A DNA stretch of 64,000 bases, taken from assembly GCA_963536495.1 (NCBI GenBank), contig CAUTAF010000003.1, forward strand, positions 6,582-70,581, given 5' to 3'. This DNA is from an uncultured Eubacteriales bacterium (GTDB taxonomy: Bacteria > Bacillota_I > Bacilli_A > RF39 > UBA660). Under the pieces are notes generated by a model, which had not been told where the DNA came from, did not search any database, and saw only the letters and a list, made by a program, of their open reading frames with translations. The position numbers and the translations under genes were made by a program. Below, in pieces: positions 3,550-49,470 of the stretch (positions are counted from its first letter, which is position 1; each line of letters opens with the position of its first letter).

Positions 3550-3634
3550 TGGTGCCACGAGTGGGACTCGAACCCACATGAATTTCTTCGCACGATTTTG
3601 AGTCGTGTGCGTCTACCAATTCCGCCATCATGGC
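3550..3634 (-). tRNA. tRNA-Leu (anticodon CAA), type II with long variable arm, encoded CCA
   Basis: Revcomp gccatgatggcggaattggtagacgcacacgactCAAaatcgtg...gagtcccactcgtggcacca. Acceptor stem pairs (one G-U). D-arm GCGG/AATTGGTAGA/CGC. Anticodon loop cuCAAaa. T-loop GGTTCGAGTCC. Confidence 0.9.
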
Positions 3635-4445: not shown

Positions 4446-6789
4446 TATTAAATTTAATATTTTCAATAGTAAGTGTTGCTTTAAAATCTTTTAATGCTTT
4501 GTTTATAGCATCTTTTATTTTATCGCTACAAGATATTTCAAAATTCTTAATAACTGTTTTTAATGAAACATTATTAACTGTCTTATATCCTCTAACTTCA
4601 CTTATTATATCTATTAAAGTATCAGATTCTTCTATATTAAAATTATATTCTACTTCTTTTAATTCTTCTTTATGAACTGATATTTTATCATGATATATTT
4701 CTTGATATATCTCTTCAGTTATAAAAGGAAAATATATTGAAAAGTTAATTAAAAGTTTTTTAAGTAAAGTATATACTGTTTTTTGACCTGAATATCTAGC
4801 TAAATCTCCAAACTCTTCTGGTCTATAAAGTCTATGTTTAACTATTTCTATATAGTTATCACAGAAATTCCAGAAGAATTTTTCTAATGTATTTAAAGCA
4901 AGACCTACTTCATAATGATCTAAATATGAGATAAATTGTGTTTCTAATTCTTTATACTTTTGTAAAATATATTTATCAAAATATTCATAATCATTAAATT
5001 CTTTATCTTCAAAGTCTTCTAAATGCATCTCAATAAACTTAGAAACATTCCATATTTTATTAATTAATTTCTTAGCTCTTAGTAAAGTTTCTTCAGAATA
5101 AGTAATATCTGTTCCAAGACGACCTGATGCTGTCCAATATCTTACTACATCACTAGAATAATTATCTATTAGTTCAATTGGATCAAACTTAGAATTACCT
5201 TTACTCTTAGATATTTTTTCACCTTTAGATGCCATTACAAATCCTGTAATCATTACATCTGTCCATGGTAATTCTTTAAAATGATAAAAACTCTTAACTA
5301 TTGTATAAAAATCCCATGTTCTAATAATATCACTAGAATTAGTTCTAAGAGACATTGGTCTTAATATGTCTTCATAGTTTTCTTTTTCACCATAACGCAT
5401 ATTAATAAGAGGTGTTACTGAACTAGTTGCCCATGTATCTAATACATCAGTTTCCGCTATCACTTCTTCTCTTTTATAACCTTTTGGTAAATCTACTAAA
5501 GGATTAACTGGTAAATCTTCTTCATCTGCTACTATTACTTCTAAAGTATCTTTTTTATACCAAACTGGAAAAGGTACACCAAAATATCTTTGTCTTGAAA
5601 TACACCAGTCCCATGCTATGTTTTTTACCCATTCTTCATATCTTTTTTGCATGTAACTTGGATTCCAATTAATTTTATTACCTTGTTCTAATAGTTCATC
5701 TTTATGATTAATTATATCGATAAACCACTGATTCATAACAGAATATTCTACTTCTTTACCACATCTTTCATGAACTTGAACTTCGTGTTCTATTTCTTCT
5801 TGTTTTACTAAAACCTTAGCTTCTTCTAAATCTTTAAGTATCTCTTCTCTAGCTGCTTTTATCTTTAAACCACCATATTTTTTTATAGATTCTTTTATTT
5901 TTCCATCTTCTGTAAAAATATTTTTTAGTTCTAAATTATATTTTTTCCACCACTCGATATCTGTTTGATCTCCAAAAGTACAGCACATTACTATACCTGT
6001 ACCTTTATCAACTGCTACTTTTTCGTCCCCTAATATCTTAACTTTTTGTTCTACTACAGGAATAACTGCAGTTTTACCAATTAAATGTTTATTTTTTTCA
6101 TCATTTGGATTAACAAATACAGCAACTATTGCAGGTAATAATTCTGGTCTAGTTGTTGCAATAGTAAAAGTTTCATTATCTTCTAAAGTAGTAAAGTTTA
6201 TATAGTTAAATAGCGTTTTAAGACTTTTAGTTTCTAGTTCTGCTTGAGCAATAGAAGTTCTACATTCATTACACCATAAAGCTGGACTTTCTTTATGATA
6301 TGCTAAGTTTTTCTTATATAAATCTAAGAATGATTTTTGACTTATTTTAATAGATTCTTCACTAACTGTTTTATAAGAATGATTCCAATCACTACTTATA
6401 CCAGATTTTGTAAATAATGTTTTAAATTCTTTTTCATATTTATCAGTTATATCATAGCAATATTTTCTAAACTCTTCTCTTGATATTTCATGAGCTCTTA
6501 AAGATAATTCTTTTTCAACTAATCTTTCACTAGGTAAACCATTATCATCAAAACCAAATGGATAAAAAACATTGAATCCTCTTAATCTTTTATATCTAGC
6601 TAACATATCTGCTTGATTATAAGAAAATATATGTCCTATATGTATCTTACCATTTACTGTTGGTGGTGGTGTATCTATTGAATAGACTGTTTTATTATCA
6701 TCTCTTTTAAAAGCATATACTTTATTATCTTGCCAGTAATTACTCCATTTTTCTTCTTTTTCTTTAAAAGAATATTTTTTATCTAACAT
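4390..6789 (-). CDS. valS: Valine--tRNA ligase (short form lacking the C-terminal coiled-coil)
   Basis: Class I HIGH (TPPPTVNGKIHIGH) and KMSKS (KISKSKGN) motifs. ATTRPELLPAIVAVFVNPNDEKNKHLIGKTAVIPV aligns with the ValRS editing-domain region. WCISRQRYFGVPFP and DVLDTWATSS motifs present. Confidence 0.85.
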   Translation of the reverse strand: MLDKKYSFKEKEEKWSNYWQDNKVYAFKRDDNKTVYSIDTPPPTVNGKIHIGHIFSYNQADMLARYKRLRGFNVFYPFGFDDNGLPSERLVEKELSLRAHEISREEFRKYCYDITDKYEKEFKTLFTKSGISSDWNHSYKTVSEESIKISQKSFLDLYKKNLAYHKESPALWCNECRTSIAQAELETKSLKTLFNYINFTTLEDNETFTIATTRPELLPAIVAVFVNPNDEKNKHLIGKTAVIPVVEQKVKILGDEKVAVDKGTGIVMCCTFGDQTDIEWWKKYNLELKNIFTEDGKIKESIKKYGGLKIKAAREEILKDLEEAKVLVKQEEIEHEVQVHERCGKEVEYSVMNQWFIDIINHKDELLEQGNKINWNPSYMQKRYEEWVKNIAWDWCISRQRYFGVPFPVWYKKDTLEVIVADEEDLPVNPLVDLPKGYKREEVIAETDVLDTWATSSVTPLINMRYGEKENYEDILRPMSLRTNSSDIIRTWDFYTIVKSFYHFKELPWTDVMITGFVMASKGEKISKSKGNSKFDPIELIDNYSSDVVRYWTASGRLGTDITYSEETLLRAKKLINKIWNVSKFIEMHLEDFEDKEFNDYEYFDKYILQKYKELETQFISYLDHYEVGLALNTLEKFFWNFCDNYIEIVKHRLYRPEEFGDLARYSGQKTVYTLLKKLLINFSIYFPFITEEIYQEIYHDKISVHKEELKEVEYNFNIEESDTLIDIISEVRGYKTVNNVSLKTVIKNFEISCSDKIKDAINKALKDFKATLTIENIKFNIIDSSYKIENIELEKEDK

Positions 6790-34611: not shown

Positions 34612-35459
34612 TTTTTCTCCTTACTCTTCTTTTTTGTTTCTTTTTTAACTTCTTTTACTTCTTCTTTTATCTCTAATTCTTCTTGTTTTTCTTCTTTTTC
34701 TTCATATTTATCTAAGAAATTATCTTCTGTAACTATTCCTTTTTTCTTTATTTTATATAAATTAATAAAATAAAGCACTACTAATACAAGCATAATAAAT
34801 ATTAAAGTTACTAAAGTATATAAAGTTAATTCTTGCATGTATTCTGAATAGTTTAAAAGTAAATTATTTAAATAACTTGCCCAAACATTACCTACAAAAC
34901 TTATAAATTTTGGAATAAAAGTTATTAATAAATTAACTATAAAACAAATAAATAAAATTATCGCAATATTAGAAAATGTTTTAGAAGTAGATTTATTAAT
35001 AATCATAAACATAATAAACATAAAAATAAGTATTACTATTATAGCTATTACTATTTCTTTTAATGCTATTTTTTCTATTTCTTTAAATATACCTACTTTA
35101 TATCTTTTTACTTGATTTATAATTTTTTCTTCTACTAAAGTTTTTTCATAAAAATGTTTATCTAATTTTTCTAACTTTAATTTATCTTTTATATATTCTC
35201 TATCTATTAAAGCATCTTTGTTATTAATAACATCAATAATAAAGTCATCTATTTTTTTATCAATATTTATTACTTCTACTTCTCCAAGTTCTTTAAAAAA
35301 TTCATAAACAAAATTTTTATTATTTTTAGCATACTCAATTTTTTCTACATTTTTTCTTATATTTTCACTACTATTAACTAATTTAAATATATATAAATTA
35401 CTTAATAAAAGTAATGTAACTATAAAAATAAACGATAATATTTTATTTAAAATTTTCAT
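34608..35459 (-). CDS. Hypothetical membrane protein with a K/E-rich C-terminal tail
   Basis: ORF with several TM helices. Confidence 0.4.
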   Translation of the reverse strand: MKILNKILSFIFIVTLLLLSNLYIFKLVNSSENIRKNVEKIEYAKNNKNFVYEFFKELGEVEVINIDKKIDDFIIDVINNKDALIDREYIKDKLKLEKLDKHFYEKTLVEEKIINQVKRYKVGIFKEIEKIALKEIVIAIIVILIFMFIMFMIINKSTSKTFSNIAIILFICFIVNLLITFIPKFISFVGNVWASYLNNLLLNYSEYMQELTLYTLVTLIFIMLVLVVLYFINLYKIKKKGIVTEDNFLDKYEEKEEKQEELEIKEEVKEVKKETKKKSKEKK

Positions 35460-35950
35460 ATTTTTCTCCTACTTTCTATAATTTTATCAAATTCCTTTAA
35501 ATCTTCTTTATTATAAGACCACATTAAAATTTCCATAAAGTTATCACTATCTTCAAATAAAAAGCATTTCATATAATAAGTTTTTTTATTTTTAGTAAAT
35601 GTAAATGTATATGAATTATTATTTTCTTTTATCTCTAGATTTTCTTTATCTTTTTTATTATCTTCTAGTTTATAATTTTTATAAAAATTAAAATCATTTT
35701 TAAAATTATTTTTATTATCTATAAAAACAGTTATTATTTTAAAATTAGTTTTATCCATATAAACTATATCAGTTAAAGGATTAACTTTTTCTTTATCTAT
35801 TTTTTCATATTTTTCATCAATTAATAACTCATAATTATTACTAGTTTTTATTCTTTTTAGATTGCTATTATTAAAATTAGTAAACAAATAAGAAATAGTA
35901 ATAAACATAATTCCTAAGACTAAAAATAGATTTATTATTCTTTTCTTCAT
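35456..35950 (-). CDS. Hypothetical secreted or membrane-anchored protein
   Basis: N-terminal LFLVLGIMFITISYLF. Confidence 0.4.
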   Translation of the reverse strand: MKKRIINLFLVLGIMFITISYLFTNFNNSNLKRIKTSNNYELLIDEKYEKIDKEKVNPLTDIVYMDKTNFKIITVFIDNKNNFKNDFNFYKNYKLEDNKKDKENLEIKENNNSYTFTFTKNKKTYYMKCFLFEDSDNFMEILMWSYNKEDLKEFDKIIESRRKI

Positions 35951-35970
35951 ATACTAAAAGTATAACATAA

Positions 35971-36003
35971 AAATTAAAAAAGATAGAAAATTCTATCTTT
36001 TCA
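35971..36003 (-). terminator. Intrinsic terminator closing the giant-protein operon
   Basis: aaaaagatagaa-aa-ttctatcttttt: a perfect 8-bp stem with A/T runs on both sides. Confidence 0.6.
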
Positions 36004-36007
36004 TCTC

Positions 36008-36436
36008 TTATGCTAAATCGCTATTTACTTTTTCTATAACTGGATTATAAGTTGAATTATCAAACGCTAATATCCCCCAAAAGATTACTGGCAAAAAGAA
36101 TAATCCTAAAGCAAACATTCCAGGTTTTCCAAAGTTTCTTGAAATATTTACTAACATTCTTATACATATATATATGTTAACGAATGGTATAAGTAAAAGT
36201 AATATATTCCATACTGGCATAGACGCTATTTCAAACATAACTACAACATTATATATAGGAATAAGCACTGCCCATCCAGGTTTACCAGCTTTAGTAAATA
36301 CTTTCCATTTAAATATTATAGAAACAATAGCTATTAGAAAAGTGATCATAAAAATAAACATAAAGAATCCTAAAAATGCTGCTACAAAGGCTTCTAAAGC
36401 ATCTACACTACTACTATCATAATAATAATCTGTCAT
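36008..36436 (-). CDS. Small polytopic membrane protein (142 aa) with a KAGKPGWAVLIPIYN motif
   Basis: RBS AAGGAGAAG. 3-4 TM helices. Co-transcribed downstream of the 1340-aa gene. Confidence 0.5.
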   Translation of the reverse strand: MTDYYYDSSSVDALEAFVAAFLGFFMFIFMITFLIAIVSIIFKWKVFTKAGKPGWAVLIPIYNVVVMFEIASMPVWNILLLLIPFVNIYICIRMLVNISRNFGKPGMFALGLFFLPVIFWGILAFDNSTYNPVIEKVNSDLA

Positions 36437-36487
36437 TTTCTTCTCCTTCTATTTTAAGTATATATAATTAATAACTATTATACAATA

Positions 36488-39400
36488 TTATTTTCTTCTA
36501 ATATCTTTTTTTATTTCTAAAGCTTTATTAAACATATTTATTTGTTCATCATTTAAAGATAATAACATGATATCTTTATCTTCTTTTATTTGATTTATCG
36601 CCATATTAATTTGTAATAAAACACTATCTTCTATATCGATAATTTGATTTTTATTTATTATTTTTTTATTAAATAATAAATCTGCTATTTTAACTGTCTT
36701 ATCATCACTATCATAAAGAATTGCAAAATTAGGATTCATTACAACTTTTGTAGTTTGAGGATTTAAATTATGTTTAATAGCTAACTTAGTAATAAATAAG
36801 TTAGATTCTTCTACTTTATAATTAGTATTTTTGGTAATATTTTCAAGTTCTTGATAAGTATTAAAACTCTTAAAATTACTATCGTTATATTCAATATATT
36901 CATCATTATAGATATATAAATTATCAAGATTATATTCTTTATCTACTGTTTTTTCATCTAATAAAACATATTGATTTTTAGAATCATCTAAATCTAATTT
37001 TCTATTTAATATAACTGGTTCATATTTAATAGGTTCTTTTATATTATATTCTTTTTCTAAAGTTAAATTTTCTTCTAAAACTTTATATATATCGTTATTT
37101 CCTCTACCTATCGTAATTTTCTTAAGTCTTAAAGCTTCATATTCTTCTTTAGTTATCTTTTTTTCTTCTAATAATTTTTGATAAGTTTCTTTATCGAGTT
37201 TTATTAATTCCTCTGCTGCTTTTTTATATACTTCAAATATTTCTTTATTTAAAGCTTCTTTAGTTTTATTAACTTCTCTATTAATTGCTTTATTTGGTAC
37301 TTCGATGTTATCAAAACATAATGTGTCCCCATTTCTCCATACCCAACTTTCTGCAACTAAATGACCTACTTTATCTTTTACAACAAATATTCTTCCATCG
37401 TTATCTATCATACTATGTTCCATACAGGTTTCACCACGACCTGATAGTTTTTGACAACAATCACTAAATACACCTACTGTTAATGCAAATGGATCATCTA
37501 ATCTTAATATTTCATAATCATAATCATCATGTGAATTTTCTACTCTAACTATACTACTTAAAGTTCTTTTTCTACCTAAATTATAAATTTGTTGTAATAC
37601 TTCAAAATCTTTTTCTTTATAACCTGCTATTAAAGATGTTCTAGCTAAAGCTTCATTACCAACATTAATATCTTGATAACTTGCACTTGATATATAAGAA
37701 AGTGCATGATTTAATGTTAATTTTCTATTACTATTCATTATTTCTATTTCTCTAAAACTTTTAGCAACTTTATTTAACATTTCTAATTTTTCATTGTTAT
37801 TATTTAAAATAATATTTAAATTTTTTAAAAAGAATTCTCTAAAACCAGGATTATTTTCATATAAGAAATCTTTAAATATTTTTTCTAATTTATTTGGGGT
37901 AATTATAGGTAATTCTTCATACTGTTCTAAAATATTTCTAAATACTTTAGATGTCTTAGTTGCATAATCAAAATTAATATTTAAAGAACAATTGTGATTT
38001 TCATCTTCTGTATAAAATCTTTCAAAGAGCTTATCTTCATCAAATTCTACTTTATCCTTTTTTAAAGATAAAATTAAATCTTTTTTATATTTAGTATTAA
38101 TATCTTTTTTAAGTTCTTCTAATATAAAAGAATAATTACTTGATATAGTTTTAGGAATATATGTAAGTATAGAATATAACTGGTCATATCCTTTACTATC
38201 TTGATCAAAAACTCCAAATAAATAAGAAGCTTTTATTAAAGATATTATTTTATCTTCACTATTTGAATAAGTTTTAAGTCTCATTAAATTAGACCAATAT
38301 TTACCTGATAATAAAAAACTATCTATATCATTTTCTGGAAATTTCATCATTACTGTTTTATTAGGTATAAAAGTTTCTCCAGTTTTCTTATACCATTTTT
38401 CTAATTTATCAATTCTTACTTTATCTATCATAGATATTACATCATCAGTACTTTTAAGAGCTAGTTTTATTCCATTTTCTATTCCAAATCTATTAAAATA
38501 TTCTTTTATATCATTATGTATACTAGGATTTTTTAAAAGAGCCAGTTTAATTTGATTTTTTGTTAAATAACTTTTCCACTCATTATAATTTTCTTTTAAT
38601 ATTTTTAAATCTAAATATCTATTATTAGCATAAAAATATTCTTTTAATTCTTTTGGAGCATTTTCATCTATAAATAATTCTTTATGTTTATCTTTTAGAA
38701 AAATTTTACTATCTTCTTCATATATGAAGTCTCCAGATAAACATTTTTGAGAAATAACATTCATTATTTTTTCTTCTAAATTATTATAATCTTTAAACTT
38801 TTTAATATCTTCAATACTTATAGCTTCTAATAATTTACCATACTTTTCACCTAAAGTTAAAAATGCATCTTTTCCTAAACTTAGAATAAAATCATTATAA
38901 TTATCATTTTTTTGAAAGAATAAGAATAATTTTTTATGTTTTAAATATTCTTTTAACTCTGGATATTTTTTTATGTAATCTAAACTTAACCTTCCATTAT
39001 AACATAGATTTTTTAAATGTTCATTTTCTTCTTTTGTTATATTTAAAACATCTTTAAAATCGACGAATATTTCTGGATATTTATTTTTAAAATTAATATT
39101 TTTTTCTAGTGTTCCATAATTTATATTTTTATTAAATAAAGATGCTTTACCAGTTAAGATAAAATTATAAACACTTTGTTCTATCTTTTCATTTAATTTA
39201 TCAAATTGATAAAAATCATCTAATGTTCTAACATTTAAACCATTCTTAATAAATGGTCCATAACTTGTCCATAATTTTAAAAAATTATAATTACCATAGG
39301 TATTAATATATTCTTTTACAAAATCAAAATTATAATCATTAAAAAGATAAATAATTGGTAAATCTAATACTTTAAATAAATCTTTATTCTTTAATTCTTC

Positions 39401-40510
39401 TATATATTCTTCTTTTTGATATAAAGTTATAGTATTTAAATTTCCTTCATTAAATAATGTTTTTAACTCTTTACTATTTTCATCATTTATAAAAATCAAA
39501 GGGTATTTATCATGTAATAAAGATGTTACACTAGTATAATCTAAGATATCTTTATAAGATTTTTCTTCTCTTGTTTTTTCTAAATAAGAAACAAAGTTTT
39601 TTTCAAAATCATCATAAGTTTTAAAAGATTTAGTAAAATCTATTATATCGTAATTTCTTAATACATAATCTTTAACTATATCAAATATTTTAAAATTACT
39701 TTTACTAAATATTTTAGTATCATTTTCTAATTTTTTTAAATATTCTACATTAAAATACTGAATAAATTTTTCTGTTTGAACATTTTTTAAAAAATCAAAA
39801 TCCAGGTAATCTAATAAATCACTAGTATTAGTAATATCTGTTTTAAAATTAAAGTTTAAACATTCTGCCCACTTTGGAAATTTAAAATCATGATTATTAG
39901 TTAAATAATCTATTATAAATTTTTTTGCAGTTTTAATAGTTGATATTTCAAGATTACCTTCATTTTTAAAAAAATAATTAAAAATTATTAAATCTCTTCT
40001 TCTACTAAGTTCACTAAAAAAGTCTTGATATTTTAAAATAATTTTTTGATATTCTCCAGGTTTATAATTTTCTTTTACAGTTAATGGTATTTCAACTTCA
40101 TTTAATAAAAAATTATCTATTGCTATATTTTTAAAAACATCCTGATACTTTATGAAATCTTCTACTGATAAACTTCTAGCAAAATAATCTTTTTTAACAT
40201 CTTCTGGTATATCTTCATTTATTAAAAATAAATCTTTATTTTTAATAATATCTTTTTTAGAATATTTATTTATGTCAATCTTTTCATCATTAAATAATAT
40301 TTCTTCTCTTATCTTATTATCAAATGATATATCTTTTAATTCTTCATAAGGAATATCACTTAAATCATAAGAAAACAAATCATCTTCTAAACCAGAATAC
40401 ATCACTAAATAATTATTTTTTAGATTAATATTACTTTCATGATCTATTTCTTTTTTTAAATTTAAAAGTTCTTTCTTTTTATTTTTAAATTCATCGATAG
40501 TTAACTTCAT
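36488..40510 (-). CDS. Giant hypothetical cytoplasmic protein (1340 aa), no recognisable domain
   Basis: Uninterrupted ORF with no TM helix, signal peptide or P-loop. The C-terminal third has a Cys/His-rich block: DDPFALTVGVFSDCCQKLSGRGETCMEHSMIDNDGRIFVVKDKVGHLVAESWVWRNGDTLCFDNIE. Confidence 0.6.
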   Translation of the reverse strand: MKLTIDEFKNKKKELLNLKKEIDHESNINLKNNYLVMYSGLEDDLFSYDLSDIPYEELKDISFDNKIREEILFNDEKIDINKYSKKDIIKNKDLFLINEDIPEDVKKDYFARSLSVEDFIKYQDVFKNIAIDNFLLNEVEIPLTVKENYKPGEYQKIILKYQDFFSELSRRRDLIIFNYFFKNEGNLEISTIKTAKKFIIDYLTNNHDFKFPKWAECLNFNFKTDITNTSDLLDYLDFDFLKNVQTEKFIQYFNVEYLKKLENDTKIFSKSNFKIFDIVKDYVLRNYDIIDFTKSFKTYDDFEKNFVSYLEKTREEKSYKDILDYTSVTSLLHDKYPLIFINDENSKELKTLFNEGNLNTITLYQKEEYIEELKNKDLFKVLDLPIIYLFNDYNFDFVKEYINTYGNYNFLKLWTSYGPFIKNGLNVRTLDDFYQFDKLNEKIEQSVYNFILTGKASLFNKNINYGTLEKNINFKNKYPEIFVDFKDVLNITKEENEHLKNLCYNGRLSLDYIKKYPELKEYLKHKKLFLFFQKNDNYNDFILSLGKDAFLTLGEKYGKLLEAISIEDIKKFKDYNNLEEKIMNVISQKCLSGDFIYEEDSKIFLKDKHKELFIDENAPKELKEYFYANNRYLDLKILKENYNEWKSYLTKNQIKLALLKNPSIHNDIKEYFNRFGIENGIKLALKSTDDVISMIDKVRIDKLEKWYKKTGETFIPNKTVMMKFPENDIDSFLLSGKYWSNLMRLKTYSNSEDKIISLIKASYLFGVFDQDSKGYDQLYSILTYIPKTISSNYSFILEELKKDINTKYKKDLILSLKKDKVEFDEDKLFERFYTEDENHNCSLNINFDYATKTSKVFRNILEQYEELPIITPNKLEKIFKDFLYENNPGFREFFLKNLNIILNNNNEKLEMLNKVAKSFREIEIMNSNRKLTLNHALSYISSASYQDINVGNEALARTSLIAGYKEKDFEVLQQIYNLGRKRTLSSIVRVENSHDDYDYEILRLDDPFALTVGVFSDCCQKLSGRGETCMEHSMIDNDGRIFVVKDKVGHLVAESWVWRNGDTLCFDNIEVPNKAINREVNKTKEALNKEIFEVYKKAAEELIKLDKETYQKLLEEKKITKEEYEALRLKKITIGRGNNDIYKVLEENLTLEKEYNIKEPIKYEPVILNRKLDLDDSKNQYVLLDEKTVDKEYNLDNLYIYNDEYIEYNDSNFKSFNTYQELENITKNTNYKVEESNLFITKLAIKHNLNPQTTKVVMNPNFAILYDSDDKTVKIADLLFNKKIINKNQIIDIEDSVLLQINMAINQIKEDKDIMLLSLNDEQINMFNKALEIKKDIRRK

Positions 40511-40561
40511 ATAATTTATCTTTCTATAATAATATATATCATTTTTTAAGATATTTTTAAA

Positions 40562-40595
40562 GTCAAAAAAAATATAGAATTATTAATTCTATATT
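40562..40595 (-). terminator. Intrinsic terminator after serS
   Basis: atatagaatt-atta-aattctatat: a perfect 10-bp stem followed on the minus strand by U8. Confidence 0.7.
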
Positions 40596-41888
40596 TTATT
40601 TATTATCTTTAGGTCTTATAACTTCTAATCCACCCATATATGGTTGTAATACTTTTGGTACTTTAACACTTCCATCTTCTTGATAATTTTGTTCAAGTAT
40701 TGCAATAAGTGATCTAGGACTCGCTACTACTGTATTATTTAATGTTGCAACATATTCATTACCTTTTTCTGTCTTCATTCTTATACCAAGTCTTCTAGCT
40801 TGTGCATCTCCTAGTGTAGAACAACTTCCTACTTCAAAGTATTTTTGTTGTCTTGGACTCCATGCTTCTACATCACATGATTTAACTTTTAAATCTGCTA
40901 AATCACCACTACAACATTCTAAAGTTCTAACTGATAAATCCATACTTCTAAAGAATTCTACTGTATAACTCCACATTTTGTTATACCAAGTCATAGCATC
41001 TTCTGGTTTACAAATTACTATCATCTCTTGCTTTTCAAATTGATGAACTCTATAAAGTCCTCTTTCTTCTAAACCGTGAGATCCTACTTCTTTTCTAAAA
41101 CATGGTGAGTATGAAGTCATAGCTATAGGTAATTTTGTTTCATCTATTATTTGTCCTTGAAATTTACCTATCATAGAATGTTCTGATGTACCTATTAAAT
41201 ATAAATCTTCATTTTCTATTTTATACATCATAGCTTCCATTTCAGGAAATGACATAACTCCTGTTACTACATCACTATGAATCATAAATGGTGGAATACA
41301 GTATGTAAATCCTTTATTAATCATAAAATCTCTTGCATATGCTATTGTAGCTTCGTGAAGTCTTGCTATATCACCTACTAAATAGTAAAATCCGTTCCCA
41401 CTAGTTCTTCCAGCAGATTCTTTATCAAGACCTGCTAAGCTTTCACAAATATCTGCATGATATGGTATTTCATAATCTCTTGTAAATGCTTCTCCAAATC
41501 TTTCTACTTCAACATTTTGACTATCATCTTTTCCAATAGGTACAGTCTTATCCATAATTTGAGGAATAACTAACATATTATTTTTTAATACTTTACTTAG
41601 TTCTTCTTCCTCTTTTTCTATATTTACAAGTGTTTCATTAATTTCAGTAACTTTCTTTTTATTATTTTCTATCTCTTCTATTTTACCTTCTTTTACAAGT
41701 AAAGCTATTTGACTAGAAACATTATTTCTTTCTTGTCTTAAAATATCACCTTTTTGTTTTAAATCTCTTATTTTTACATCTAATTCTATTACTTCATCAA
41801 CTAGAGGTAATTTTTCATCTTGAAATTTCTTCTTTATATTTTCTTTCACTAATTCTTTATTTTCTCTTATAAATTTTATATCTAACAT
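40596..41888 (-). CDS. serS: Serine--tRNA ligase
   Basis: N-terminal coiled-coil arm MLDIKFIRENKELVKENIKKKF. Class II catalytic core. 430 aa. Confidence 0.85.
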   Translation of the reverse strand: MLDIKFIRENKELVKENIKKKFQDEKLPLVDEVIELDVKIRDLKQKGDILRQERNNVSSQIALLVKEGKIEEIENNKKKVTEINETLVNIEKEEEELSKVLKNNMLVIPQIMDKTVPIGKDDSQNVEVERFGEAFTRDYEIPYHADICESLAGLDKESAGRTSGNGFYYLVGDIARLHEATIAYARDFMINKGFTYCIPPFMIHSDVVTGVMSFPEMEAMMYKIENEDLYLIGTSEHSMIGKFQGQIIDETKLPIAMTSYSPCFRKEVGSHGLEERGLYRVHQFEKQEMIVICKPEDAMTWYNKMWSYTVEFFRSMDLSVRTLECCSGDLADLKVKSCDVEAWSPRQQKYFEVGSCSTLGDAQARRLGIRMKTEKGNEYVATLNNTVVASPRSLIAILEQNYQEDGSVKVPKVLQPYMGGLEVIRPKDNK

Positions 41889-43571: not shown

Positions 43572-46500
43572 TTATTTTTTTAATACTTCGATGTATACTT
43601 CATAACCATTTATATCATAGTTATTTTCTTTATAATCAGTTAAATTTACTTCATCAGATAAAGTTTCTCTTTTTATAACATCTTGATAATTAGATATAGC
43701 TTTTTTAACTAATTCTTCATTTGTATTATAGTTTACTACTATTCTATCTACTACATTAAAGTCTTGAGTTTTTCTTATATTTTGAATCTTACTAATTATT
43801 TCTCTAGCTATTCCTTCTTCTTCTAATTCTTTAGTAATATTAGTATCTAATATTATATATGTATCATATATTCTTGCTGCATTATAATTTTCTTTTACAT
43901 CTACTCTAACTTCTACTAAATCAGAATTAATAGTATAATCATCTCCTAAAACTGAGATAACTATTTCTTTTCCACTAGCTAAAGATTTAACGTCTTTTTC
44001 TTCTAAATTACTTAAGATATCACTAACTAACTTAATATTCTTACCAAATTTAGGTCCTAGTTCTTTAAAGTTAGGTTTAATACTAATATTCATATAATTA
44101 CTCATATCAGATACGAACTCTATTTCTTTAATATTTAATTCTTCTTTAATTAAATCTATTAAGTCTCCTATTATTTCTTTATTAGAAATATCTAGTATTG
44201 CTCTTCTAAGAGGTTGTCTTATCTTAATCTTAGAATTTTCTCTAACTGTTCTTCCTAAAGTAATTAAATCTCTTACTAAGTCCATTTTTTCTTCTAGTTT
44301 TAAATCTATATATTTATCTTCACATACTGGATAACTATCTAGAAATACTGATTCTTTATTAGTTAAATTCATATATATTTCTTCTGCTAAGAAAGGAGAA
44401 AATGGTGCTATTAACTTAGATAATCCTAAAAGAATATTATAAGTTGTTTTATATACTACTTTTTTACTTAATTCATTTCCTTCTACTTTAGACCAAAAAC
44501 GTTTTCTGTTTCTTCTAATATACCAATTAGATAAATCATCATTAACAAAATTAGTTATCTTCTTAACAACTTTTGTTAAATCAAATTCCTTCATAGAACT
44601 TTCTATATATTTTATTAAATTATTATATTTAGAAATAATCCATCTATCTATTTCTTCTAAATCTTCATCATTTATTTCATAACTACTTGGATTAATAGAA
44701 TCGATATTTGCATACATACTAAAGAAATTATAAGTATTCTTGAGTGTTGAAAACATCTTAGTATTTATTTCTTTTACACCTTCTTCATCATATCTAAGTG
44801 GTGTCCATACAGGAGATGCTGATAAGAAGAACCAACGTATTGCATCTGCTCCAAATTCTTCTAATGCTCCAAATGGATTAACTGCATTTCCTCTTGATTT
44901 ATGCATTTTACTTCCATCTTTTGCAAGAACTAAGTCATTAACTAAAACATTTTTATATGGTGCTTTTTTCTTTAAAAATACTGATATTAATAAAAGTGAA
45001 TTAAACCATCCTCTAGTTTGATCTATTCCTTCACATATAAAATCTGCTGGAAAATGTTTTTCAAAGAAATCTTTATTTTCAAATGGATAATGACAACTAG
45101 CAAATGGCATAGCTCCACTATCGAACCAACAATCCATTACTTCTGGAATTCTAGTCATTTCTTTTCCACATTTTTCACATTTAATATGAATATTATCTAC
45201 ATATGGTCTATGTAAATCTATATCTTTTATCTCTTCAACTGCTTTTTCTTTTAATTCTTCTATAGAACCTATCATTTCTTGATGACCACAGCTACATTTC
45301 CATAGAGGTATTGGTGTTCCCCAATATCTACTTCTAGATATTGCCCAGTCGACCATATTTTCTAACCAATTACCAAATCTTTTTTCACCAACATAACTTG
45401 GAAACCAATTAACTGTCTTATTAGCTTTAATTACATCATCTTTATATGCTGTTGTTTTAATATATAAACTAGGAGATGCATAATACATAAGTGGTGTTGA
45501 ACATCTCCAACAATGTGGATAATTATGTTCTATCTTTTGTTTTTTAAATAATTTATCGTTTTCTTTTAAATACTTAATTATATCTATTTCAAGTTGTGGA
45601 TCTAATACAAATCTATCTTTCCAAAGACCTTCTTTATATTTACCTTCTGAATTAACTGGATTTATAAGTTCTAAATCATATCTTAAACATACATCGTAGT
45701 CATCTTGTCCAAAAGCAGGAGCCATATGTACTATACCTGTACCGTCTTCCATAGTAACATAAGTATCATTTGTAACAATAAATGCTTTTTTAGTCATCTT
45801 TATAGATGGTATTAATTGTTCATATTCTTTATATTCTAAATCTTTACCACTATATTTTTCTATTACTTTATATTCACTTCCTATTACTTTTTCTACTAAT
45901 TTTTCAGCTAAGATAAATTTATATCCTTTAGATTCAACTTTTACATATGTTTCTTCTGGATTAACACAAAGAGCAACATTAGCTATTAAAGTCCATGGTG
46001 TTGTAGTCCATACAAGAAAATAACTATCTTCATCTTTTAATTTAAATGGAATATACACTGAATTAACTGAAACATTTTTATATCCTTGTGCTACTTCGTG
46101 AGATGCAAGACCAGTTCCACATCTTGGACAATATGGTAATATTTTAAATCCTTCGTATATTAAACCAGCTTTATAATATTCTTTTAATATCCACCATTCT
46201 GTTTCAATAAATGAATTATCATATGTAATATATGGGTTCTTAGTATCTATTAATTGACCCATTTTATGTGTAAAATCAACGAATGCTGCTTCGTTAGCTA
46301 ATACACTATCTTTACATTTTTTATTAAATGCTTCTATTCCGTATTTTTCAATATCACCTTTTCCACTAAAACCTAGTGCTTTTTCTACTGCTACTTCTAC
46401 TGGAAGACCATGAGTATCCCATCCTACTCTTCTATCTACTTTATATCCATTCATAGAGTAGTATTTACATACTGAATCTTTTAATAATTTTGCCATCATA

Positions 46501-46664
46501 TGGTGAATTCCAGGCATACCATTAGCAGTTGCAGGTCCATCATAAAAAACAAAATTTTTATCTTTTCCTTGATTACTTTTATTTAATATATCGTGTTCAT
46601 CCCAGTAGTTATATAGTTTTTCATTAACTACACTAACTTTTTCTTTATCAAGTTCTTTAAACAT
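43572..46664 (-). CDS. ileS: Isoleucine--tRNA ligase, type 2 (eukaryote-like/mupirocin-insensitive class). The start was corrected to MFKELDK.
   Basis: GMPGIHHMMAKLL (HIGH), KMHKSRGN (KMSKS-like), WAISRSRYWGTPIP and C-terminal Zn-ribbon Cys pairs. The track ORF's first 19 codons (MVPRHFAL...) are the T-box sequence itself. The true start has the RBS GAGGAGG. Confidence 0.9.
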   Translation of the reverse strand: MFKELDKEKVSVVNEKLYNYWDEHDILNKSNQGKDKNFVFYDGPATANGMPGIHHMMAKLLKDSVCKYYSMNGYKVDRRVGWDTHGLPVEVAVEKALGFSGKGDIEKYGIEAFNKKCKDSVLANEAAFVDFTHKMGQLIDTKNPYITYDNSFIETEWWILKEYYKAGLIYEGFKILPYCPRCGTGLASHEVAQGYKNVSVNSVYIPFKLKDEDSYFLVWTTTPWTLIANVALCVNPEETYVKVESKGYKFILAEKLVEKVIGSEYKVIEKYSGKDLEYKEYEQLIPSIKMTKKAFIVTNDTYVTMEDGTGIVHMAPAFGQDDYDVCLRYDLELINPVNSEGKYKEGLWKDRFVLDPQLEIDIIKYLKENDKLFKKQKIEHNYPHCWRCSTPLMYYASPSLYIKTTAYKDDVIKANKTVNWFPSYVGEKRFGNWLENMVDWAISRSRYWGTPIPLWKCSCGHQEMIGSIEELKEKAVEEIKDIDLHRPYVDNIHIKCEKCGKEMTRIPEVMDCWFDSGAMPFASCHYPFENKDFFEKHFPADFICEGIDQTRGWFNSLLLISVFLKKKAPYKNVLVNDLVLAKDGSKMHKSRGNAVNPFGALEEFGADAIRWFFLSASPVWTPLRYDEEGVKEINTKMFSTLKNTYNFFSMYANIDSINPSSYEINDEDLEEIDRWIISKYNNLIKYIESSMKEFDLTKVVKKITNFVNDDLSNWYIRRNRKRFWSKVEGNELSKKVVYKTTYNILLGLSKLIAPFSPFLAEEIYMNLTNKESVFLDSYPVCEDKYIDLKLEEKMDLVRDLITLGRTVRENSKIKIRQPLRRAILDISNKEIIGDLIDLIKEELNIKEIEFVSDMSNYMNISIKPNFKELGPKFGKNIKLVSDILSNLEEKDVKSLASGKEIVISVLGDDYTINSDLVEVRVDVKENYNAARIYDTYIILDTNITKELEEEGIAREIISKIQNIRKTQDFNVVDRIVVNYNTNEELVKKAISNYQDVIKRETLSDEVNLTDYKENNYDINGYEVYIEVLKK

Positions 46665-46910
46665 ATTTCCTCCTCTAAACAAAAAAAGATGATACCTCAT
46701 AAGGGCGAAATGCCGCGGTACCACCTTAATTTATTACTCATTCATGTTAACGGTTTCTAACCGGCTTTAAACTAAAGCACATCAAAAGTGATTTAAATTA
46801 AAGGTTTTATTGATTCTCACCAACCATCAACTCTCTTAAAAAACTAACTTTAATTTCGTCTTTCTCATCTGTTTTGATGATATTAATTTAGCATATTTAA
46901 CTTACTTTTT
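46665..46910 (-). promoter_or_regulatory. T-box leader of ileS
   Basis: Minus-strand RNA has AGAGAGUUGAUGGUUGGUGAGAA (stem I) and the canonical AAGGUGGUACCGCGG (revcomp of 46712-46726). A hairpin and U7 follow, then the RBS. Confidence 0.85.
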
Positions 46911-48194: not shown

Positions 48195-48271
48195 GCACCT
48201 ATAACTCAGTGGATCAGAGTGTTTGGCTTCGAACCAAAAAGTCGGGAGTTCGAATCTCTCTAGGTGCTCCA
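48195..48271 (+). tRNA. tRNA-Arg (anticodon TCG), encoded CCA
   Basis: gcacctataactcagtggatcagagtgtttggctTCGaaccaaaaagtcgggagttcgaatctctctaggtgctcca. Acceptor 7 bp. T-loop TTCGAAT. Anticodon loop cuUCGaa. A candidate promoter TTGCTT-17-TATAAA lies at 48156-48184. Confidence 0.8.
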
Positions 48272-48965: not shown

Positions 48966-49053
48966 TGGTGCCCAAGGCCGGACTTGAACCGGCACGAACG
49001 GTGAAGTTCCCAGGATTTTAAGTCCTGTGCGTCTACCAATTCCGCCACTCGGG
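48966..49053 (-). tRNA. tRNA-Leu (anticodon TAA), type II
   Basis: Revcomp gcccgagtggcggaattggtagacgcacaggactTAAaatcctg...ggttcaagtccggccttgggcacca. Confidence 0.9.
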
Positions 49054-49055
49054 CA

Positions 49056-49132
49056 ATGGTGCCTTGTTGGAGGCTCGAACTCCAGACCCCTTGATTAAAA
49101 GTCAAGTGCTCTACCGACTGAGCTAACAAAGC
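49056..49132 (-). tRNA. tRNA-Lys (anticodon TTT)
   Basis: Revcomp gctttgttagctcagtcggtagagcacttgactTTTaatcaaggggtctggagttcgagcctccaacaaggcacca. Confidence 0.9.
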
Positions 49133-49135
49133 AAC

Positions 49136-49211
49136 TGGCTGCCTCGATTAGATTCGAACTAATGTATGGAAGAGTCAAAGTCTTCTGCCTTTACCGCTTG
49201 GCTACGAGGCA
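49136..49211 (-). tRNA. tRNA-Gln (anticodon TTG)
   Basis: Revcomp tgcctcgtagccaagcggtaaaggcagaagactTTGactcttccatacattagttcgaatctaatcgaggcagcca. Confidence 0.85.
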
Positions 49212-49217
49212 AAAATA

Positions 49218-49301
49218 TGGTGGAGGGAGATGGATTCGAACCACCGAACCATAAGGAACTGATTTACAGTCAGCCGCGTTTAGCCACTTCGCTATCCCTC
49301 C
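49218..49301 (-). tRNA. tRNA-Tyr (anticodon GTA), long variable arm
   Basis: Revcomp ggagggatagcgaagtggctaaacgcggctgactGTAaatcagttccttatggttcggtggttcgaatccatctccctccacca. Confidence 0.9.
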
Positions 49302-49308
49302 ATAAAAA

Positions 49309-49384
49309 TGGTGCCGAAACCAGGACTTGAACCCGGAACCCACTGATTACAAATCAGTTGCTCTACCAATTGAGCCATTTCGGC
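49309..49384 (-). tRNA. tRNA-Thr (anticodon TGT)
   Basis: Revcomp gccgaaatggctcaattggtagagcaactgattTGTaatcagtgggttccgggttcaagtcctggtttcggcacca. Confidence 0.85.
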
Positions 49385-49393
49385 ACTAATAAA

Positions 49394-49470
49394 TGGTGGG
49401 CGATTACGGACTCGAACCGCAGACCCCCTGCTTGTAAGGCAGGTGCTCTAACCAACTGAGCTAATCGCCC
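49394..49470 (-). tRNA. tRNA-Val (anticodon TAC)
   Basis: Revcomp gggcgattagctcagttggttagagcacctgcctTACaagcagggggtctgcggttcgagtccgtaatcgcccacca. Confidence 0.9.

Follow-up and report, generated by a model that had tools for sequence, protein, structure and literature searches.

Layout of the locus and its giant gene

We analysed a 64,000-nt stretch of DNA from an uncultured Eubacteriales bacterium (assembly GCA_963536495.1, contig CAUTAF010000003.1, positions 6,582–70,581), hereafter the window, by which we mean the whole of that stretch. Downstream of serS, on the minus strand, lie a large open reading frame (ORF) of 1340 aa and a small ORF encoding a 142-aa membrane protein. An initial annotation, made from the letters alone, had described the two as a terminator-bounded unit and proposed a functional pairing between them. 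The genes and signals of the locus are, in the order of transcription:

40563–40597 (−): serS hairpin terminator, 13-bp A/T stem, 3-nt loop, U8 (fold and conservation)
40533–40541 (−): extended −10 promoter-like element TGaTATATA for the large gene (consensus match and conservation)
36488–40510 (−): large ORF, 1340 aa, giant cytoplasmic protein of an unnamed family (ORF list)
36457–36485 (−): spacer promoter-like element TTGTAT-17 nt-TATACT (consensus match; overlaps the end of the large gene)
36443–36449 (−): ribosome-binding site GAAGGAG of the small gene (sequence)
36008–36436 (−): small ORF, 142 aa, DUF5684-family polytopic membrane protein (Pfam PF18936)
35970–36002 (−): hairpin terminator 3' of the small gene, perfect 11-bp stem, 4-nt loop, U-run (fold and conservation)

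Both ORFs were found where they had been annotated, separated by a 51-nt spacer, with the AGGAG of the small gene's own ribosome-binding site 6–7 nt upstream of its ATG. The motifs quoted for the two proteins were also located, KAGKPGWAVLIPIYN in the small protein and DDPFALTVGVFSDCCQKL...SWVWRNGDTLCF at residues 1005–1066 of the large one. The small protein has about four hydrophobic stretches by hydropathy. The highest Kyte-Doolittle 19-mer of the large protein reached only 0.96, leaving it without a transmembrane-like stretch, and a search of it for a Walker A motif found none.

The large protein had been annotated as cytoplasmic and as not recognisable from its sequence, and both points are supported; searches of Pfam, NCBIfam, PHROGs, PADLOC and the PDB returned no match for it. 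Its family had no real match in the PDB either, whether by sequence or by profile, a hit to isopullulanase (E = 0.15) being attributed to chance. Scans of homologues, short forms and six divergent representatives against Pfam, NCBIfam, PHROGs and PADLOC were likewise negative, except for weak SHOCT matches and one BspA-type leucine-rich repeat (LRR) N-terminus (P0198). A PcfJ-like domain, considered at first, was dropped as no Pfam match supports it; the literature retrieved for that name concerned only pCFJ plasmids of C. elegans. Keyword literature searches found no paper on the large protein or the DUF5684 protein. As far as these searches reach, the large protein is undescribed, which supports that part of the initial annotation.

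The base composition of the large gene (20.6% GC) resembles that of its neighbours (19–23%; 19–28% across the window), and recent horizontal transfer into the window was rejected on this ground. An alternative genetic code was also rejected, since TGA ends 7 of the 47 long ORFs and table 11 is adequate.

Family, domain map and conserved core

A word-indexed search recovered 13 full-length relatives of 1070–1761 aa, and a further search of this kind with a 108-aa core profile added nothing useful. The core profile spanning residues 925–1150 matched 3019 cluster representatives at E ≤ 1e-3, 1298 at E ≤ 1e-10 and 289 at E ≤ 1e-30, and 146 loci were confirmed in a scan of species-representative genomes. 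For most members the length falls between 1100 and 1900 aa, and some 430 residues separate the core from the C-terminus. Their carriers are metagenome-assembled genomes (MAGs) from human, rabbit, goat and chicken guts, labelled uncultured Bacilli, Tenericutes, Mycoplasmatota, 'Mycoplasma sp. CAG:877/956', 'Clostridium sp. CAG:710/914', Candidatus Faecimonas and Coprosoma. The family is characteristic of uncultured Bacilli with AT-rich genomes from the gut. It comprises thousands of 50%-identity clusters, yet has no Pfam, NCBIfam or PDB coverage, and it can fill 4–25 kb in genomes thought to be small.

The window protein matched the core hidden Markov model (HMM) with E = 5.5e-111, carries every invariant residue and shows the family core signature, (C)C(Q)...H...SWxWRN...CFDNIE preceded by '...SSIPR'. 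Its 90%-identity cluster holds 107 sequence variants, and of the 15 listed members 13 share its length of 1340 aa, which points to an intact gene under selection. A marginal hydrophobic 19-mer was present in only 2 of 145 family representatives; these proteins stay in the cytoplasm, unless some unconventional route exports them.

Some members depart from the common plan. In the divergent P0198 (1065 aa), an N-terminal BspA-type LRR (Pfam LRR_5, E = 3e-21) replaces part of the helical region, and an LRR_5 protein is also encoded downstream of the large gene in locus L087. The homologue in L087, as in L088, is split into three ORFs. One of the L087 breaks comes from a lone in-frame TGA (5941–6000) within the conserved stretch '...SSIPRIQ*STKGYTYEMLR'; this TGA is either read as sense in that organism, or marks a pseudogene, or is a sequencing error.

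AlphaFold2 models of residues 880–1340 (mean pLDDT 92.6, pTM 0.92) and of residues 1–1200 (mean pLDDT 89.4), together with repeat searches and conservation, gave the following map of the large protein:

40106–40243 (−): N-terminal repeat copy 1, residues 90–135, 'DLFLINEDIPEDVKKDYF...' (iterated repeat HMM, E = 4e-9)
39368–39520 (−): N-terminal repeat copy 2, residues 331–381 (repeat HMM, E = 5e-11)
38909–39094 (−): N-terminal repeat copy 3, residues 473–534 (repeat HMM, E = 3e-16)
38531–38701 (−): N-terminal repeat copy 4, residues 604–660, 'ELFIDENAPKELKEYFY...' (repeat HMM, E = 1e-16)
37556–38443 (−): all-alpha middle domain, residues ~690–985 (conservation and model)
36941–37540 (−): GNAT-like lobe B, residues ~991–1190 (contains the Cys/His/Trp block)
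37121–37183 (−): SHOCT-like helix 'YQKLLEEKKITKEEYEALRLK', residues 1110–1130 (between alpha3 and beta5 of lobe B)
36506–36913 (−): alpha/beta lobe C, residues ~1200–1335 (confidently folded in the model)

The four N-terminal repeats are helical modules that open with 'PELFIDxxAPxELKxxFY'; family members have three to six copies, with a median of four. These modules are folded, and the large protein is not a fusion of low-complexity surface-protein repeats; such a fusion would have spoken against its initial description. The middle domain is modelled as entirely helical (pLDDT ~90) and includes the 'GNExLA..AGY..DF..LQ.IYN.GK.R..SSIPR' helices ahead of the core. Across 48–80 homologues, its residues W706, Y707, G766, F890, F893, G951 and R982 were invariant or nearly so.

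Lobe B was predicted to hold the elements of a GNAT (Gcn5-related N-acetyltransferase) fold in the order beta1-alpha1-alpha2-beta2-beta3-beta4-alpha3-beta5-alpha4-beta6. Along the sequence come beta1 (EILRL), the CCQ loop, alpha2 (ETCMEHSM), beta2 (GRIFVVKD), beta3 (LVAESWVWRN), beta4 (TLCFDNIE), a long alpha3 (1084–1115), beta5, alpha4 and beta6. The top Foldseek matches were GNATs, as the initial annotation had anticipated in naming GNATs among the folds to look for. What it had called a K/E coiled coil is indeed helical, and corresponds to the 32-residue alpha3 of lobe B plus the SHOCT-like helix. The Pfam SHOCT model (PF09851) itself matched 14 of 60 family members, weakly and at best with E = 8e-4, and did not match the window copy. 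The N/Y/D-rich C-terminal region is, in the model, no low-complexity tail: it folds confidently as the alpha/beta lobe C, which is probably GNAT-like too, in a minimal form. That lobes B and C arose by internal duplication was rejected (hhalign probability 0.2%). We hold the family membership, the architecture and the GNAT-like fold, taken jointly, with high confidence.

The Cys/His/Trp block near residue 1000, singled out early as the only conspicuous feature of the protein, proved to be the most conserved part of a large family and is the probable functional heart of the protein. Over 206 family members, D1067 and E1070 were present in all, C1065, S1055, W1056 and W1058 in 205, R1059 in 201, H1032 in 197 and C1019 in 194. 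The model places C1019 in the alpha1-alpha2 loop, H1032 on alpha2, S1055, W1056, W1058 and R1059 on beta3, and C1065, D1067 and E1070 on beta4. In GNATs, the alpha1-alpha2 loop, alpha2, beta3 and beta4 surround the active-site cleft, and the catalytic Glu of Gcn5 sits on beta4. By that topology the invariant residues of the large protein would cluster in space.

The core also occurs outside the giant proteins. It forms the C-terminus of a 697-aa hypothetical protein of Microcystis phage MaMV-DC (ORF68L; L089:2531–4624), and lies in a 345-aa protein whose gene immediately follows that for a TraG/VirD4-type coupling protein of a type IV secretion system (T4SS; L085:2211–3248). C1019, S1055, W1056, W1058, C1065, D1067 and E1070 were kept in the short forms, in the T4SS-adjacent protein and in the phage protein.

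Neighbours of the large gene

To describe the gene neighbourhood of the family, 84 loci were fetched, about 80 of them distinct (81 from species-representative genomes and 5 from metagenome assemblies, two pairs of the latter being duplicates), and ORFs were called and clustered in all 84. In 70 of the 84 fetched loci (about 69 of the roughly 80 distinct ones), an ORF of ~337 aa overlaps the 3' end of the large gene, an arrangement that suggests translational coupling; examples are L046:9283–10296 and L005:10625–11614. The ~337-aa partner gave only a weak Pfam Aldedh match. Its profile aligned with two structures of gamma-glutamyl phosphate reductase (ProA; PDB 8zok and 1o20) over both halves of that enzyme (E = 4e-22 and 3e-21). 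Unlike ProA, it is without some 65–80 residues between ProA positions ~246 and ~312, and its C-terminal end is also replaced. Because the missing segment is the one that holds the catalytic cysteine of E. coli ProA (TQRPSTCNTVE), the partner is probably a pseudoenzyme rather than a reductase.

The ProA-like partner was absent from the 64-kb window by tblastn and HMM search. When core domains were placed in a neighbour-joining tree, partner-bearing clades surrounded the window clade, so the orphan state is derived. One MAG (SRR9217414-bin.7) holds both an orphan copy beside a DUF5684 gene (L006) and a partner-bearing paralogue (L008). We read the window gene as an orphan paralogue that has lost its ProA-like neighbour.

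Several genomes carry more than one giant gene. A head-to-tail array in L003/L004 (1–16761) comprises up to five paralogues of 1290–1590 aa in L003; further arrays were found in L023, L026, L027, L028, L053 and L062, and in L026 and L028 whole cassettes of a giant gene plus a ProA-like gene are repeated. Arrays such as those in L003/L004, L023, L027 and L062 are what one would expect if the family were a conflict or mobile-element effector (toxin, anti-phage or anti-host) expanding by tandem duplication, with the window orphan a domesticated or decaying relic. The short core-only proteins beside the T4SS coupling protein and in MaMV-DC would also fit, as would a ToxN near the large gene in L005. 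Against this, there was no PADLOC or PHROG match, and no members were found in IMG/VR viral contigs or, by tblastn, in plasmids; a search of a phage collection matched only Microcystis MaMV phages. A mobile-element origin is not supported by these searches. The window gene, moreover, sits amid housekeeping genes with the same 19–23% GC as its neighbours, and is not decaying, given the predominance of full-length copies among the listed members of its cluster. We consider such an effector role improbable.

The small protein is a clear polytopic member of DUF5684, with nothing unusual about it (PF18936, E = 1.3e-19, 71 bits against a cut-off of 27.4, profile positions 1–78 of 81). A dedicated two-gene operon, in which the large protein and the 142-aa protein would form a membrane-associated scaffold or enzyme complex, is suggested by their common strand, their close spacing, the hairpins that bound the pair with no terminator between, and the conservation of this arrangement in L001, L006 and L007. 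The distant locus L078 also has a DUF5684 protein, a different one of 296 aa, 1.3 kb downstream of its large gene. A DUF5684 gene directly 3' of the large gene was found, however, only in three distinct loci (L001/L002, L006 and L007), all from the window's own clade, which shares the whole synteny from ileS through a 102-aa gene, a dnaB-like gene, serS, the large gene, DUF5684 and a 164-aa gene on to PrsW. Some 75 further loci lack a DUF5684 gene within 8 kb. Since the adjacency is confined to one clade with shared synteny, it counts as a single evolutionary event, and co-occurrence of the two genes does not extend across independent lineages, a pattern of the kind that the initial annotation had named as refuting its proposal.

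The spacer between the two genes is consistent with an independent transcript. It was 88% conserved in L001, L006 and L007 with both hexamers of the promoter-like element kept (TTGTnT-17-TATACT), and it holds a strong Shine-Dalgarno sequence; separate transcription of the small gene, besides that from upstream, may therefore occur. With a different, ProA-like protein as the family-wide partner, and that partner absent from the window, the idea of a membrane-associated complex is not supported, and we regard the dedicated operon as very improbable. We read the DUF5684 gene as a neighbour peculiar to this lineage, preceded by a promoter-like element of its own; rather than a functional subunit, its product is very probably not even a dedicated partner of the large protein. 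For genome scans this is a caution: adjacency between terminators in one lineage was not, here, evidence of a functional pair.

The two bounding hairpins are themselves real and conserved. The serS terminator, whose stem begins within the serS stop codon, folds as a 13-bp stem followed by U8 (40555–40600, −; −9.0 kcal/mol, z = −4.0 against shuffles). The other forms a perfect 11-bp stem in the centroid structure, followed by a U-run (35965–36010, −; minimum free energy −11.9 kcal/mol, z = −3.2 against shuffles); its minimum free energy structure includes further outer pairs beyond that stem. Three related loci, taken from other MAGs and from metagenome assemblies, conserve both hairpins at 83–85%, although their large proteins are only ~55% identical; the serS hairpin was kept in L001 and L007 and that of the small gene in L001, L006 and L007. 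A GC-demanding terminator scan missed both because their stems are all A/T. The description of the locus as a terminator-bounded unit therefore stands, but the unit need not be a single transcript, because the spacer holds a conserved promoter-like element. Upstream of the large gene, AAAAAATGATATATA around the extended −10 element is invariant in the window clade; a TTGACT at 40561–40566 is not conserved and, at 22 nt, lies too far away.

Directly after the second terminator we observed a further conserved extended −10 element, TGtTATACT (35950–35967, −; kept in L001, L006 and L007). Only 8 nt separate its end from the start codon (ATG) of the gene that follows (164 aa, 35456–35950), which has no Shine-Dalgarno sequence before it, and the operon downstream of the small gene may thus begin with a leaderless or near-leaderless mRNA. 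Elsewhere in the window, a T-box leader (Rfam RF00230, 101.7 bits) at 46698–46877 (−) lies upstream of ileS (43572–46724), a cluster of six tRNA genes occupies 48969–49470 (−), and isolated tRNA genes lie at 48195–48268 (+) and 3553–3634 (−). Nearly all ORFs examined in the window are on the minus strand. The GC skew is −0.25 to −0.35 along almost the whole of 1–64000 and relaxes to −0.07 only at 56–60 kb.

Proposed function and comparison with known systems

From its predicted fold and conserved residues, the large protein is probably an acyl- or aminoacyl-transferase of non-canonical type, built on a scaffold of helices. The protein would transfer an acyl or aminoacyl group, with D1067/E1070 on beta4 serving as general base in the manner of the beta4 Glu of Gcn5. 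One of the invariant cysteines might be a covalent acyl carrier, or a metal ligand together with H1032, and the N-terminal helical repeats would recruit a macromolecular substrate or partner. Ancestrally, the large protein would have worked with the translationally coupled, ProA-derived pseudoenzyme, which the window copy has lost. For this explanation as a whole, comprising family, architecture, transferase reading, partner history and DUF5684 neighbour, we estimate a probability of roughly 0.55. That lobe B is catalytically active as a transferase is a more tentative proposal, to which we give slightly less than even odds.

A number of observations weigh against this explanation. The CoA-pyrophosphate motif Q/RxxGxG/A was found within 30 residues after the beta4 CFDNIE in only 2 of 202 members, and the window protein, which reads ...CFDNIEVPNKAINRE... 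there, is not one of them. No GNAT model of Pfam or NCBIfam matched the window protein, and no acetyltransferase model was among the families most often matched by 60 scanned members, even at E ≤ 10. All Foldseek E-values exceeded 0.1. H1032 is a Tyr in the phage homologue, and C1018, Q1020 and C1029 vary. The spatial clustering of the invariant residues derives from GNAT topology rather than from model coordinates, and the GNAT-like assignment of lobe C is indirect. As to the neighbour, the lack of a terminator between the two genes makes it likely that some co-transcription of the DUF5684 gene remains.

The missing motif speaks for the main rival to the transferase reading. Lobe B would then be GNAT-like in fold but without catalysis, either a pseudoenzyme or a domain that senses a ligand or metal; its invariant Cys and His residues would hold a structural metal, and the whole protein would be a structural or regulatory scaffold. 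Non-enzymatic GNAT-like folds exist (antizyme, for example), the ProA-like partner of the family is itself a pseudoenzyme, and ~990 residues of helical repeats are typical of scaffolds. Yet the absolute conservation of D1067 and E1070 on beta4, with the near-invariant S1055 on beta3, looks catalytic rather than structural. That pattern spans giant, short, conjugative-element and phage forms. The Cys/His positions other than C1019 and C1065 are not universal. We view the pseudoenzyme or sensor as rather unlikely.

A bolder form of the transferase reading is that the core represents a new, widespread clade of GNAT-fold enzymes without the CoA-pyrophosphate loop. A Cys/Asp-Glu (± His) centre would carry out covalent or metal-assisted acyl or aminoacyl transfer, within an ancestrally obligate complex whose ProA-derived pseudoenzyme would present or sense the substrate. 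We think this unlikely in its full extent. If it were true, small-genome gut Bacilli would have expanded the clade into giant tandem proteins for a protein- or metabolite-modification pathway. With the present analysis, the domains of the family are mapped with confidence, a defined set of residues marks its GNAT-like module as a catalytic candidate, and a conserved partner, probably a pseudoenzyme, has been identified.

Among known systems, FemABX, L/F-transferase and ATE1 have GNAT-like folds without the CoA motif, and ATE1 depends on conserved cysteines. The large protein would share with FemA (1lrz) and ATE1 (8tzv) such a fold, more than one lobe and a helical insertion. These likenesses raise the possibility that the twin-GNAT module is an aminoacyl-tRNA-dependent transferase of this kind: its model shows two probable lobes and, past beta4, an inserted helix of 32 residues, and alpha3 with the SHOCT-like insertion would be a tRNA-binding arm. 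In contrast, classical small GNATs outscored FemA and ATE1 structurally, no Pfam FemAB, Leu_Phe_trans or ATE match was obtained, and the large protein differs from both in showing no sequence similarity to them and no related genomic context, that is, no peptidoglycan or N-degron link in the gene neighbourhood. Dependence on aminoacyl-tRNA thus appears decidedly unlikely.

The closer comparison is with the GNATs themselves, including RibT of B. subtilis (5xxr), RimI-type enzymes (3dns, 9mto), Gcn5 (1ygh), NatD (4u9w) and Naa80 (6nas). Because the motif test and the sequence-model test both failed, we do not file lobe B as a canonical member. It differs from GNATs in having neither a sequence-model match nor the CoA-pyrophosphate motif, in its inserted 32-residue alpha3 and SHOCT-like helix, in its place at the end of a 1340-aa helical-repeat protein, and in its own invariant set, C...H...SWxWRN...CFDNIE. 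It is nonetheless predicted to have their full order of elements, which lobe C probably shares, and it carries acidic residues on beta4, where Gcn5 has its catalytic Glu. Judged from the model, lobe B would work, at most, like a GNAT.

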